A stretch of DNA of 64,000 nt from Eledone cirrhosa. Its lineage: Eukaryota. Of this stretch, positions 35,192 through 55,050 are shown one piece after another. The notes beneath the pieces are model-generated. The model did not search any database. It saw nothing but the letters and a program-made list of their open reading frames with translations, and was not told the DNA's origin. The position numbers and the translations under genes are program-made. The DNA is taken from positions 309,070,001-309,134,000 of the forward strand of contig OZ024741.1 in NCBI GenBank assembly GCA_964016885.1. The letters run 5' to 3'. Position 1 is the first letter of the stretch; each line of letters opens with the position of its first letter.

Positions 35192-35657
35192 AGAGAGAGA
35201 GGGAGAAAAAGAGAGAGATACCTGGACAACCGATCGTCCTCGAAGTTCGTGAGCCAATTATGGCCCCTCAAGGACTAAGGCGTAGATTACTCCATCCAAT
35301 GGAAAATTATTACTAAGTCTAAGCCATACGCAAATGGGAATCCGTCTTGTGGACTGTGCATTGAAGAAAGGATCAATATCCCGAGAAGGTTACGTAATAG
35401 CGCTTATCTTAATTCAAGGAATGGACTTTTTCACGTTGTCCACACGTCTGGAACACCTATTACATAATTACAAAGCTCCACATTAACTAACATGAACAAT
35501 CTATAATATTATGCATAACATGAATAATTTATCCCGAGCCTCCACAGTTATCTCCCCGATACCGATCTATTGTAGGTTTACCACCCCAGGAGAAGTGACT
35601 GTTTCGGGACATGCGTATTCATACAGTTGTTTTCCTTTTCCATACAACTTCATTTAG

Positions 35658-42383: not shown

Positions 42384-42469
42384 GTGTAGAAGGTGAGTAA
42401 TATTGTAGAACAATAAAACTATGCATATATCAGATAAGTAGCACTCAACAGTTGGTATAACTGGAGTAT

Positions 42470-42822
42470 ATATAATAAAGAAGAAATTAAAAGATGGTTA
42501 AAAGAGTTCCATATATTTTATTATGCGCATATCGAATAAAAAATCATCCTGGGACAAAAATTGTGTTCTCATCAGATAAAATAAGGTAACATGATATGAG
42601 GCCTAATAGCACTTGTTTACAGGAAAGTATTAACACTTATATTTCTGTCATATGTAGACTTAGCACTTTCCTGTAAACAAGTGCTATTATGCCTCATATC
42701 ATGTTACCTTATTTTATCTGATGAGAACACAATTTTTGTCCCAGGATGATTTTGTATTCGATATGCGCATAATAAAATATATGGAACCCTTTCAACCATC
42801 TTTTAATTTCTTCTTTATTATA
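42470..42822. repeat. Inverted repeat, arms about 158 bp, spacer about 36 bp
   Basis: 42470-42628 is the reverse complement of 42665-42822; same family as 54405-55050. Confidence 0.92.
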
Positions 42823-46884: not shown

Positions 46885-47021
46885 CGGATCTAGCTGTCCC
46901 AACGGCCGGAGCTCAGCCGTCGGGGTCTGACTCTTTTCCTATTACCCACTCTACTACCCTAAGTATCGAGTACTCTGGTGTGTTATGGTCCACCTGGTAT
47001 CTTACCGCATCTTCTTTGTTA
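46885..47021 (+). mobile_element. Diverged terminal fragment of the Penelope family
   Basis: Matches 52225-52360. Confidence 0.85.
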
Positions 47022-48373: not shown

Positions 48374-48547
48374 TATATATCAACTAGAAATAGATTGACA
48401 TATATATATATATAAAATAAACATATGAAACAATGACAGGGAATAATTTGTAAAGAATGTACATTCTTTACAAATTATTCCCTGTCATTGTTTCATATGT
48501 TTATTTTATATATATATATATGTCAATCTATTTCTAGTTGATATATA
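48374..48547. repeat. Perfect palindrome of about 174 bp with no spacer, centred at 48460/48461
   Basis: ...taaagaatgt|acattcttta... Confidence 0.95.
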
Positions 48548-48638: not shown

Positions 48639-48672
<34 letters not shown>

Positions 48673-48682
48673 AACCAGTAAG

Positions 48683-48776
48683 ACCCCGACAGCTGAGCTC
48701 AAGCCGTTTCGACGGCTAATTCTGGACTAAATGAAAATTTATCCTGGTATTTAAATAGCCGATCTTCTCAAGGGGT
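48683..48776 (-). ncRNA. Hammerhead ribozyme candidate, U3-A8 core variant (left arm)
   Basis: acccc-TTGAGAA-ga(t)cggcta...tagccgtc-GAAA-cggcttgagctcagctg-TC-ggggt. Confidence 0.75.
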
Positions 48777-49886
48777 AATTCCATATATGGTCAAAGTGAT
48801 TGTCAAAAATCAGTAGTAATTCTGTGGTTGCAAATTAGTAGGGGAGATGGTGGCTAAACCTCCCAGTAGGAGAAAGAGGGGAGGGGGTGGAGTAGACCCA
48901 ATCAAGCGTTGGTAGTGCCAGCTACAGCTGGGCATGAGGTCAAAGAAGATACAGGGGAGGGGGAGGGGGAGGAAGTCGGAACGGTAGGTAGAACAATGGG
49001 GGGTAGAAATAGGAAAGAAAAAAAAAAAATACTGAGAGTGAAGAAAGGCAAATAAGTGTAAAGAAAAGTAAAGTAAATTAAATTCTACGACCTAGGTGTC
49101 AGGCTATTGTTAGGCGAGAATAAAATAAAGAAAGAAAGAAAGAAGTAAAAAAATAAATAAATGAATAGATAAGGAAATAAGTAAGAGAACTAGGTGGGAC
49201 GGATAAGGCAAGGACCCTTTTAAGAGGTATAAGTACGTAAATGATACGGTGACGGGTCAACAAAAGGGGCCAAAATACTAAAGAGACTACCACGAAATAA
49301 ACAATAAAGGTTTCCATCCCGGGCCAGCAACGACCCAGTGCAGCAAAGTGAACTTGTACGAGATAATAATTCTGAGTCCCGAGAAAAATATATACTAATG
49401 CTAACTCTAAAAGATCTAAAACAAGCTACATGAAAGTTCGTACGAAATAAAGGTAGAATACGGAGAAATAAATTCAGAATCCACCCCGCCCAGAAGAAGA
49501 GCGAAGCAAGAAATACTGAAACGAAAAAATAAGGCATGTGCCACTAAGAAATATAGAGGGCACAGAGAATAGTGGGAGCGGTCGGAAAAAGGGGGAAAGT
49601 ATCCGGGGTCTAAGCCAGCTGCTATAAAGGGCGGAGTCCGCCAAATCTATCAAAGACTAGGGGAGGGGGGGTGGGGGTACTAAGGCTACATGGGGCCAAA
49701 GGGCAGCCTCGGGTGGGCGAGAAAAGACGCCGACAAAGGAGAAGAGCTGGGGTAGAAGGACAAAGGGGAGAGGGGGGGAAGGAAATAAAGGAAGTGATAA
49801 AAGAATACAAAGAAGATCTTACGTCTTCCTTGGCAAGCAGGGGTTACCTATTGCAAAATCGGCAACTGGGGTGTTATAGCCCTAGT

Positions 49887-50972
49887 CTACCCCCCCCCCG
49901 GGTCATTATGGGGTTTGAGGGCGAGGTAAGTCCTACGCAATCTATGTTTACATGCAGTAACCAGTTCATCTTTCTTGTTTAGGAGTTGGTCCGTCGAAAA
50001 CAGCATTTGTAAAGTTTCCTCCGAGCATAAATTGCACGGACGGCGTCCTCCCGTGTAAGAATTGGCTCTGGACAGTAATCTCCAAGTGAGATCATAGGTG
50101 ATGTTGTTGTCCTTGAGGTCCCATATGTGGCCCGAAAGTGTAGTGGCGTGACGCCGGGCCGGGTTTCGGAAGGTATGTCTATGTTGGTATAGCCGGGTCT
50201 TGAAGTCACATGCGGTAAGTCCTATATAGGCTTTGTTGGAGGTATCCGTCCTCACGTTGCACTGGTAGATCACATTACGGTCTCTGCATCTATTGTCGAG
50301 TGGGCAAATAGATCTATCCGGGCAGTTACACCTCCTGGTCGGTTCTCCACTGCTAATTAGGTTATTTCTGCCATCGGGGTTGAGTTTTTTGTTGTTAGAG
50401 GAGACGATGATTTGTGCGAAGTTTGGTGTAGTGCTGTAAGAGAGTTTGATGGTATTTTTGTTAATTATGTTGTGGTAGCGGTGTTGTAATGGGAAGTGTT
50501 TTTCAATGAGCCTAAAGAATAGTTTCCCGATGGGAGTAGTCACCTCTGCGTTGTGGGGAGGATTGAACCATGTTACATTGCGTGAGCGGCGGTGTCTCCT
50601 GCTGGTTCCGCTAATGGGAGCTGGACAGTAGGATATTTCCTCCCGGAAACCACTCCGCTTGAGGGCCTGGTTGTAATAAGGCGCATGTTCATCGAATATC
50701 CGCTCATTAGCTGACAAACGGGATATGCGGAGGGAGATGTTTTTGACCAGGTTGTTTGTGATGTTCCTAGGATGGTTTGATCGGCGGTGGATGTAGTGCA
50801 GATTGTCATTAGGTTTCCTGTATGGGTAGTACAGGTCGTTTTCGAGGTCGAGGGTTACGTCCAGGAAGTTTACTCGGGTCAGGGACGTTTGTAGGGTTAT
50901 TTTAAATCCCCAGTCGCGGAAGAATCTGATTAATTGTTTCCGGACCCGATCTGTACTACTGGGGTTGTACCT
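49887..50972 (-). CDS. Penelope-like RT C-terminus/thumb, Cys linker and GIY-YIG endonuclease (5'-truncated, about 361 codons, unbroken)
   Basis: Frame is open upstream of the listed ORF: VNFLDVTLDL, YRKPN, YIH..SNHP, WFNPP, CNC..CPL..C, VIY...YIG, FKTRLYQH, CNLCSEE, LLN. Confidence 0.92.
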   Translation of the reverse strand, partial: RYNPSSTDRVRKQLIRFFRDWGFKITLQTSLTRVNFLDVTLDLENDLYYPYRKPNDNLHYIHRRSNHPRNITNNLVKNISLRISRLSANERIFDEHAPYYNQALKRSGFREEISYCPAPISGTSRRHRRSRNVTWFNPPHNAEVTTPIGKLFFRLIEKHFPLQHRYHNIINKNTIKLSYSTTPNFAQIIVSSNNKKLNPDGRNNLISSGEPTRRCNCPDRSICPLDNRCRDRNVIYQCNVRTDTSNKAYIGLTACDFKTRLYQHRHTFRNPARRHATTLSGHIWDLKDNNITYDLTWRLLSRANSYTGGRRPCNLCSEETLQMLFSTDQLLNKKDELVTACKHRLRRTYLALKPHNDPGGG

Positions 50973-52172
50973 TTAAGAAAGATGAACTGGTTACTGCATG
51001 TAAACATAGATTGCGTAGGACTTACCTCGCCCTCAAACCCCATAATGACCCGGGGGGGTAGACTAGGGCTATAACACCCCAGTTGCCGATTTTGCAATAG
51101 GTAACCCCTGCTTGCCAAGGAAGACGTAAGATCTTCTTTGTATTCTTTTATCACTTCCTTTATTTCCTTCCCCCCCTCTCCCCTTTGTCCTTCTACCCCA
51201 GCTCTTCTCCTTTGTCGGCGTCTTTTCTCGCCCACCCGAGGCTGCCCTTTGGCCCCATGTAGCCTTAGTACCCCCACCCCCCCTCCCCTAGTCTTTGATA
51301 GATTTGGCGGACTCCGCCCTTTATAGCAGCTGGCTTAGACCCCGGATACTTTCCCCCTTTTTCCGACCGCTCCCACTATTCTCTGTGCCCTCTATATTTC
51401 TTAGTGGCACATGCCTTATTTTTTCGTTTCAGTATTTCTTGCTTCGCTCTTCTTCTGGGCGGGGTGGATTCTGAATTTATTTCTCCGTATTCTACCTTTA
51501 TTTCGTACGAACTTTCATGTAGCTTGTTTTAGATCTTTTAGAGTTAGCATTAGTATATATTTTTCTCGGGACTCAGAATTATTATCTCGTACAAGTTCAC
51601 TTTGCTGCACTGGGTCGTTGCTGGCCCGGGATGGAAACCTTTATTGTTTATTTCGTGGTAGTCTCTTTAGTATTTTGGCCCCTTTTGTTGACCCGTCACC
51701 GTATCATTTACGTACTTATACCTCTTAAAAGGGTCCTTGCCTTATCCGTCCCACCTAGTTCTCTTACTTATTTCCTTATCTATTCATTTATTTATTTTTT
51801 TACTTCTTTCTTTCTTTCTTTATTTTATTCTCGCCTAACAATAGCCTGACACCTAGGTCGTAGAATTTAATTTACTTTACTTTTCTTTACACTTATTTGC
51901 CTTTCTTCACTCTCAGTATTTTTTTTTTTTTCTTTCCTATTTCTACCCCCCATTGTTCTACCTACCGTTCCGACTTCCTCCCCCTCCCCCTCCCCTGTAT
52001 CTTCTTTGACCTCATGCCCAGCTGTAGCTGGCACTACCAACGCTTGATTGGGTCTACTCCACCCCCTCCCCTCTTTCTCCTACTGGGAGGTTTAGCCACC
52101 ATCTCCCCTACTAATTTGCAACCACAGAATTACTACTGATTTTTGACAATCACTTTGACCATATATGGAATT

Positions 52173-52266
52173 ACCCCTTGAGAAGATCGGCTATTTAAAT
52201 ACCAGGATAAATTTTCATTTAGTCCAGAATTAGCCGTCGAAACGACTTGAGCTCAGCTGTCGGGGT
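52173..52266 (+). ncRNA. Hammerhead ribozyme candidate, U3-A8 core variant (right arm)
   Basis: Same fold as the left arm with one substitution in stem III; predicted cleavage after C52261 (GUC). Confidence 0.72.
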
Positions 52267-52384
52267 CTTACTGGTTCCTATTACCCACTCTACTACCTCA
52301 AGTATTGAGTACTTTGGTGCGTTATGGTCCACCTGGTTCCTTACCACATTTCCTTCGTTATATATATATATATATATATATATA

Positions 52385-53683: not shown

Positions 53684-53706
53684 GAGTCCAGAATATATAT
53701 ATATAT

Positions 53707-53844
53707 GGATCCAGAAATAGCCGTCGAGACGGCTTCACCTCTGGCGTCGGGGTTAAACATTTTCCTATTACCCACTCTACTACCCTAAGTATTGAGTACT
53801 CTGGTGCGTTATCGTCCATCTGGTTCCTTACCACACTTCCTTCG

Positions 53845-53847
<3 letters not shown>
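53707..53847 (+). mobile_element. Diverged terminal fragment of the Penelope family
   Basis: Matches 52222-52360. Confidence 0.85.
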
Positions 53848-54387: not shown

Positions 54388-54404
54388 TATATATATATAT
54401 ATAA

Positions 54405-55050
54405 TATATAAGATCAAAAGATGGTTAAATGAGTTCCATGTATTTTATTATGCGCATTTCAAAAACAAATATCATCATGCACATTTTCTTTCAATCGCAC
54501 ATATTATTAAATTATTAAACCCTTAAATAATATTCTTAATACATATTAACAATTTCTTTTCATCGCACATATTATTAAACCCTTCAATATACAAACCTTA
54601 ACTTTACATTATTTTTCTCTTCGTTAATTTTCAAATTCTTTTAATTTATACATTATCTTCCAACGGTTTTTTCAACCTCTCTATGTAAAACAATATATTT
54701 TTCTCAGTTATAAAAGCTATCTCTCTCTCTCTATCACCCATCTCTCCTCCTATCTCATCCTTCCTCACTATACTCCTCCCCCTCCACATTTTACTCTCAT
54801 CTCCTCCTCTTTTTCATCCTTTCCACCCCCTCCCCAATTTTTTTTTTCCCCCAATATCACACATCAATCTAAAACTACTTTTCATATGTTGATTTAAAAC
54901 TGCAATATCCACAAGTGTTTTTTAACCTTCATATCATGTCCTCCTATTTTATCTGATGAAAACACAAATGTTATTGCATGATGATATTTGTTTTTGAAAT
55001 GCGCATAATAAAATACATGGAACTCATTTAACCATCTTTTGATCTTATAT
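54405..55050. mobile_element. Element with about 75-bp inverted ends, related to 42470-42822
   Basis: 54405-54481 pairs with 54975-55050. Confidence 0.75.

Follow-up and report, generated by a model that had tools for sequence, protein, structure and literature searches.

What does a self-cleaving RNA motif do for a retrotransposon that carries its own endonuclease? Craig et al. (2021) called the function of hammerheads in endonuclease-bearing Penelope-like elements (PLEs) 'still unclear' (PMC8557442). The question is raised again by a locus in Eledone cirrhosa, within a stretch of 64,000 nucleotides (the window; contig OZ024741.1, positions 309,070,001 to 309,134,000) where an earlier note had described a cryptic hammerhead in a Penelope pseudo-LTR. 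My answer is that this type I hammerhead, with a U3-A8 core and placed in the terminal repeat of a young PLE, likely cuts the element's RNA after GUC in the living cell, and that the cleaved RNA likely serves as a template. Judging from genomic sequence, I put the probability of this reading at about three in four.

The motif sits in a 1,310-nt inverted repeat (48668-49976 and 50975-52281), part of an insertion laid out as follows, with positions marked + counted from the start site considered below:

48668 to 50972, minus strand: sense arm, 5'-truncated, with the end of the ORF, about 1.1 kb of 3' UTR and the pLTR
49887 to 50972, minus strand: 361-aa ORF remnant with RT thumb, CxCx5C linker and GIY-YIG-like endonuclease, bearing Hydra-clade motifs
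50975 to 52359, plus strand: inverted arm (99.6% identical to 48668-49976) plus tail
52282 to 52359, plus strand: 78-nt 'tail' between the element ends at +61 (52281) and +139 (52359), both joined to (TA)n

The protein of the window's ORF has no Pfam match, and two of five relatives give weak RT and GIY-YIG matches. A longer-length search brought up 151 relatives, most of those listed being about 700 aa; a natural intact copy has 717 aa with DKT, CxCx5C, YIG, CxxC-EE and CKH, and with RWR where RWK is expected. Protein identity is at least 99% in all 113 genome matches that were scored, so the family is young. Tandem copies define a unit of 3,542-3,543 bp, in which the ribozyme lies about 1.1 kb past the stop codon and the cut about 190 nt ahead of the next ATG; downstream of the cut, at distances of 20 and 98 nt, lie the two fixed points where copies end in (TA)n. 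By its motifs, then, the element appears to be a young and abundant PLE with a Hydra-clade protein: it has DKT, the CxCx5C linker, CxxC and CxH flanking E and N in a C-terminal endonuclease, insertion into (TA)n, a tail and an inverted truncated arm, but neither the C3-G8 hammerhead described for that clade (A8 here) nor a size under 3 kb.

Three side observations concern the element and its surroundings. A head-to-tail array elsewhere in the genome (L156-L157; G000:C1:91.473-91.487 Mb) holds four full units with alternating spacings of 3,542 and 3,543 bp; they differ by 2-7 substitutions, alternate units being closer, which suggests duplication of a two-unit block. In another copy (L159:3379, or +104 of the inferred mRNA) the tail contains an out-of-frame AUG ahead of the main one at +232. 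A perfect palindrome of about 170 nt (48374-48547) lies immediately outside the element in the window.

The ribozyme itself has these parts:

52173 to 52266, plus strand: type I hammerhead motif with U3-A8 core, on the inverted arm; a private A at 52245 breaks stem III
48683 to 48776, minus strand: hammerhead copy typical of the family, on the sense (3') arm, with cleavage predicted to fall between 48688 and 48687
52178 to 52184, plus strand: core U3 U4 G5 A6 N7 A8 A9, where N7 is G, U, A or C according to subfamily and position 3 is U or C
52242 to 52260, plus strand: stem III, its centre the palindrome GAGCUC; predicted to allow pairing in dimers or in trans
52261 to 52262, plus strand: predicted cleavage site C17^G1.1, where genomic insert scars and symmetric arm ends fall
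52167 to 52278, plus strand: extended stem I, 52167-52172 pairing with 52273-52278 around an internal loop

The earlier note had proposed a complete type I fold at 52173-52266, and the parts are where it placed them: stem I (52173-52177/52262-52266), core UUGAGAA, stem II (52185-52193/52231-52238) with a loop of 37 nt, GAA (52239-52241), A15.1 (52242) and a GUC ending at 52261; the distal extension of stem I had been overlooked. Present are the conserved U4 G5 A6, A9, G12 A13 A14, A15.1-U16.1, H17 and G10.1-C11.1, with N7 free. A descriptor scan gives 4 matches in the window, against a mean of 0.01 per shuffle in 100 local shuffles. The fold itself is borne out by the sense copy, whose minimum-energy structure is a type I hammerhead with three stems round the core and an open stem I (junction probability 0.47 with flanks); its folding energy is unremarkable (z = -0.96). 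The copy at 52173-52266 has a junction probability of 0.002 and lacks the three-stem junction, because A52245 breaks stem III. Against G48704, this A is the sole substitution between the 1,310-nt arms, which also differ by two homopolymer indels. Exact 26-mer matches across the genome number at least 34,379 for the G form and 219 for the A form (0.6%), so A52245 is private and rare, and the sense copy is the typical one.

It follows that some details need correction. The stem III quoted in the earlier note (cggcu...) belongs to the 48704 copy, and the U at 52258, set there against a fully Watson-Crick stem in other copies, is a G.U wobble that marks the youngest subfamily and not damage. The two other copies offered for comparison (5390-5423 and 46893-46926) turn out to be mini-insertions; of the ribozyme they have the 3' half alone, with GAAA mutated. 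RNA editing, a candidate explanation of A/G discordance between arms at 52245 in 6 of 6 pairs, was rejected on the 26-mer counts just given; the discordance arose because the initial search was seeded on the rare word.

The expectation that standard motif searches would miss the motif agrees with the absence of an Rfam hammerhead match at E up to 10 (48670-48800). Covariance analysis across copies, suggested as a check, yielded no stem signal: the stems are nearly invariant, and the single double change seen (28 copies, 24 pairs) does not exceed the level in shuffles. RNAalifold on the aligned copies favours a different fold, and other subfamilies have low junction probabilities (0.004-0.08). 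The idea that the palindromic stem III allows dimers fares better in prediction, where pairing between molecules is energetically favoured (-26.9 vs 2 x -5.2 kcal/mol). Lunse et al. are said to have found in 2017 that PLE hammerhead variants cleave as dimers. A further folding prediction concerns 52232-52247 (plus strand), where the 3' side of stem II can pair with the 5' side of stem III over 6 bp, giving a competing hairpin that masks GAAA. It forms both in a C3.A8 copy and in the leader and could act as a switch.

The window holds other features of related kinds. A type I hammerhead-like motif with the canonical C3-G8 pair and a palindromic stem III lies at 54945-55015 (plus strand) in a different repeat family, with relatives at 54396-54481 and 42427-42616 (minus strand), and a second hammerhead-like motif with canonical core lies near a (TA)n run at 12475-12533 (minus strand), without a further copy in the window. 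An open frame of 787 aa at 59048-61411 (plus strand), with RVT_1 and a weak zf-RVT match, belongs to a non-LTR retrotransposon unrelated to the PLE, and 35219-35380 (plus strand) is a remnant resembling the C-terminal endonuclease region of a related element.

How unusual is the core? U3-A8 was reported in Cercyon PLE hammerheads of S. mansoni, with about 1,300 matches (PMC4209133), and it also occurs as a natural covariation with reported activity in vitro (PMC3088659). One type III construct regained activity only with the G3-C8 swap (PMC9901934). A U3-A8 core by itself would thus be ordinary and already known, and novelty of the pair is not supported. I found no literature on the activity of G8A or of C3.A8.

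The variation at position 3 is another matter. Among the first 100 of 4,944 genome matches, counted by eye, U4 is constant and A8 occurs in 98; at N7 there are 79 G, 13 U and 8 A; and the 3-8 pair is U3-A8 in 78, C3.A8 in 20 and U3.G8 in 2. Forms with G8 number 48 matches genome-wide, 9 of them C3-G8, rates that look sporadic. With A8 near fixation and C at position 3 in a fifth of these copies, U3-A8 is not a strictly compensatory pair. Nor is strict compensation supported by history: a long-lived C3.A8 lineage spread and has scars at the predicted cut too. When position 3 is masked and 46 of 97 retained rows are placed on a tree, C3.A8 forms a ladder of about 0.3 substitutions per site between older and younger U3-A8 groups, and U3 as a single clade is rejected (p-AU 8e-7, in a test that includes two rows with unrelated flanks and one sporadic row). 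A tree of 72 rows that includes older subfamilies likewise makes C3.A8 a grade between two U3-A8 groups. A single origin of C3 from U3, read from a first tree of 55 of 92 rows, was set aside; that tree was midpoint-rooted without the older subfamilies. The trees are compatible with two histories: an ancestral C3.A8 with two separate compensations, or a change of U3 to C that later reverted. Whichever holds, they indicate that a mismatched core has long been propagated. Four sequence runs (contigs, possibly the assembly's own source) show only the same steps in depth, with about 25% C at position 3. The rest of the core, positions 3 and 7 apart, is kept across subfamilies with very different 3' UTRs.

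Most copies of the family have only half of this ribozyme, and the reason appears to lie within loop II. The features concerned are:

52192 to 52225, plus strand: predicted promoter inside the ribozyme, with +1 at A52221 (48728 on the minus arm)
5306 to 5440, no strand assigned: mini hairpin insertion of the same family, whose plus arm begins exactly at +1; 3' half of the ribozyme only
46891 to 47021, plus strand: older mini-insertion, 3' half only, GAAA degenerate
53685 to 53847, plus strand: older mini-insertion, 3' half only

A TATA-like run (52192-52201) lies 29 nt upstream of an initiator-like sequence (TTAGTC, or TT/TC-AGTC more generally), and set against general consensus sequences the two look like promoter motifs. 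Among 157 arms scored at loci with the tail pattern (L162-L251, with a few duplicates from overlapping loci), 108 start at 52215-52228 and about 10 run through the 5' half of the ribozyme; genome-wide, matches to the 5' half are 14% of those to the 3' half (4,944 vs 34,379). Matches with a purine just before A52221 number 6,310, and in the first 100 of them that purine is G 87 times; at the control position 52224 there are 1,440, with G 24 times in the first 100 (both counted by eye). In full-length copies a purine occupies the place before A52221 in just 21 matches (9 G, 12 A). A pyrimidine precedes A52221 in full copies, so the extra G is untemplated. The excess is weaker in a small unbiased set of loci, where a direct count over 47 truncated arms, duplicates included, gave 12 G, 5 A, 16 T and 14 C. 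An extra G of this sort marks capping in full-length L1 insertions (PMC11702581), and internal promoters have been described in PLEs (PMC2377424, PMC3846280). The untemplated G likely places a capped start inside loop II, and read this way a cap-derived G lets DNA alone reveal a start site.

In form, most copies resemble run-off cDNAs that extend from +61 and +139 to the cap and are joined as hairpins; a start inside loop II would account for their being tiny and holding half a ribozyme. They do not have the form of non-LTR retrozymes, being inverted and starting in loop II where retrozymes are head-to-tail repeats of whole hammerheads. No carry-over of the cap G was seen in long copies, so a jump of the reverse transcriptase from the cap is not supported. 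At many hairpin junctions (L197, L208, L212 and L230 among them) an arm ending at +1 is joined to an arm starting at 52227 through a short self-complementary stretch, and some small insertions may owe their shape to snap-back priming.

The evidence that carries the main argument lies at the predicted bond itself. A genome-wide gap search found 16 matches (15 loci) in which an A/T-rich insert of 3-32 nt sits exactly at 52261/52262, between GUC and G; the same search found none at 52266/52267 and none at 52255/52256, its patterns covering the younger subfamilies and these two control positions. Fourteen of the fifteen loci carry the whole ribozyme upstream, where about 2 would be expected (full-ribozyme arms are at most about 14% of arms by the counts above; binomial p 4e-11). 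Twelve of the fourteen are U3-A8 and two C3.A8, and at the fifteenth locus, a hairpin, both arms carry an identical insert. The inserts begin with varied letters, and GUC followed directly by AAA occurs in only 3 matches. Runs of A in L316 and L338, considered as tails, proved to be templated.

Junctions between arms tell a similar story, with more noise. Those beginning at 52262 number 167 matches against 29 at 52259, counts inflated by a run of G and by microhomology (11 partners end at 52268). In a survey of 71 regions, taken as the first matches in list order plus all 29 controls, the partner arm was identified in 43 of 70 junctions at 52262; 14 partners stop precisely at 52262, most of them carrying a few extra purines, and 3 end upstream of 52259. 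Among the 29 controls 15 partners were identified, none symmetric and 8 ending upstream of 52259, the differences being significant both for symmetric ends (Fisher p 0.012) and for partners that reach upstream (4e-4). At five loci an internal sense position (+107 to +983) is joined head-to-tail to +42, a class without a matched control, the 11 partnerless control junctions having been left unmapped to the unit.

The simplest reading of the inserts is that reverse transcriptase or a ligation bridged two RNA ends, a 3' end at C17 and a 5' end at G1.1. Both have precedents, in the documented template jumping of R2 proteins (PMC11371274) and in the circularisation of retrozymes by RtcB (PMC7229834). 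The scars thus point to cleavage in vivo and to reverse transcription across the cut, and give genomic backing to the claim that a self-cleaving U3-A8 hammerhead in the pLTR of this PLE is cut at GUC. The insert scars at GUC^G, their confinement to full-ribozyme copies and the symmetric arm ends are new here; I found no earlier report of such scars in the open-access papers that the searches brought up.

I propose that the cut enters the element's life cycle in the following way. RNA polymerase II would start at A52221, so that the capped leader would hold only the 3' half of the ribozyme. Reverse transcriptase would start at +61 and +139, near the 5' end of the RNA, and would usually run off at the cap, giving small hairpin insertions, which number tens of thousands. 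The full ribozyme of the downstream repeat would cut at +41. Some RNAs would have a 5' end at +42, whether in read-through transcripts or by trans cleavage of the leader, the cleaved 3' end pairing with the leader via the palindromic stem III and then cutting it; co-folding of the two predicts a complete trans hammerhead (-50.5 vs -31.3 kcal/mol apart). Crossing from the 5' end at +42 to the 3' end at GUC, by jump or ligation, would produce a long copy and now and then leave an A/T-rich scar. The earlier note held that the ribozyme defines the end of the transcript, and this stands in part: cutting can supply an RNA 3' end, but the ends of inserted copies lie downstream of the cut, by 20 or 98 nt, so the templates of insertion were either uncleaved there or read across the cut.

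It is tempting to go further and see ribozyme and promoter as one device, in which a start in loop II, a self-cut and then a trans cut of the capped leader give a unit-length RNA with its ends held by stem I, the crossing of the junction is the main route to long copies, the hairpins are failed run-offs and the C3.A8 core works in vivo. I regard this fuller scheme as tentative and rather doubtful. A caveat that touches the main reading as well is that the 3' half overlaps the predicted promoter and the RT start region, which confounds its conservation. Insert scars are found in only about 14 of some 5,000 long copies (about 0.3%) and the cap G is absent from long copies, which makes uncleaved read-through templates a strong rival for the bulk of them. 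By that account the ribozyme does cleave, but only as a by-reaction or to restrain the element; priming in the downstream repeat on read-through RNA that escaped cleavage would yield nearly all long copies, and the scars would record occasional salvage. I consider this a serious possibility, though somewhat short of an even bet. In its favour are the element ends downstream of the cut and a C3.A8 core that lasted for about 0.3 substitutions per site of lineage history; ribozyme mutants of an anole PLE left insertion in vitro unchanged (PMC11167929), and Naiad PLEs have spread without canonical hammerheads. Yet the core, positions 3 and 7 excepted, was held while 3' UTRs diverged widely, seamless ligation would leave no scar to count, and, if the anole enzyme is a guide, reverse transcriptase requires some RNA downstream of where it starts, and a downstream repeat that stops at the tail would not offer any.

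A different objection is that nothing cleaves at all. The motif might be a catalytically dead relic kept as a promoter and as a structure bound by reverse transcriptase, with breakpoints at 52262 due to stalling at stem III and slippage in the G run. The overlap with the predicted promoter, the stems without covariation, a whole lineage with a C3.A8 mismatch and the inflation of the junction counts would all suit such a relic. Stalling does not explain inserts lying exactly between C17 and G1.1 with both sides intact (16, against 0 and 0 at the controls), nor why 14 of 15 loci have the full ribozyme or why partner arms end at the same base, and I judge the relic improbable. Less probable still is a protein nuclease, of the host or the element, that cuts RNA at the GUC^G bond, or an origin of the inserts at the DNA level: all the evidence is indeed at the DNA level and just two control positions were searched, but the bond is the one that hammerhead geometry predicts, and half-ribozyme copies are far more numerous, so DNA-level inserts should fall mostly there, where only 1 of the 15 loci is found.

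Cleavage by the ribozyme is thus the reading I retain, with the scars at the scissile bond as its probable footprint in vivo and cleaved RNA as a template. If so, element RNA is likely cut in living cells and copied, once cut, into the genome, a role that has so far been mostly hypothesised. Events this rare are visible because of the family's high copy number, and the tests on scars and cap G patterns can be applied to any PLE of high copy number. The cap-G map, the C3.A8 lineage and the cleavage scars together make the open question of the hammerhead's role a testable one.

The closest known systems are the PLE type I hammerheads of Cervera and de la Pena (2014; PMC4209133), which share with the present one the pLTR location, a long stem II, a 5-bp stem I, G10.1-C11.1, a palindromic stem III region and the U3-A8 core, and for which cutting of precursor RNA and possible circles were proposed. 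That source, in the portions available, reports low activity in vitro for minimal motifs and contains no in-vivo evidence; the ribozyme described here differs in its full stem III (5-6 bp), its 37-nt loop II with a likely start site and its scars at the cut. The natural U3-A8 hammerheads of Perreault et al. (2011; PMC3088659) have the same pair, and the available part of that paper does not describe a stable C3.A8 lineage. With the Hydra clade (PMC8557442) the element shares a GIY-YIG-type C-terminal endonuclease, DKT, CxCx5C, CxxC and CxH around E and N, (TA)n targets, an inverted 5'-truncated arm and a tail. It differs in having RWR instead of RWK, a unit of 3.54 kb instead of under 3 kb, and A8 where all 26 Hydra hammerhead rows (25 families) in File S2 of that work have C3-G8; relatives in which the motif was found (L151 and L152, 2 of 5 fetched loci) also have C3-G8.

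The anole Poseidon element PAc (Frangieh et al. 2024; PMC11167929) resembles it in having two internal RT starts that bound a tail downstream of the cut, AT-rich targets and priming on both strands. Its hammerhead is C3-G8, cleavage is protein-assisted and dispensable for insertion in vitro, and ends at the cut were not seen in RNA-seq. Finally, metazoan non-LTR retrozymes have type I hammerheads, cleavage as dimers, circularisation of doubly cleaved units by RtcB and a link to PLE pLTRs (PMC7229834; bioRxiv 10.64898/2026.07.22.740005). Retrozymes, as those sources describe them, are tandem non-coding units with whole ribozymes, whereas the family studied here has small copies in the form of inverted hairpins that hold half a ribozyme; these look like run-off products, not like a retrozyme family.
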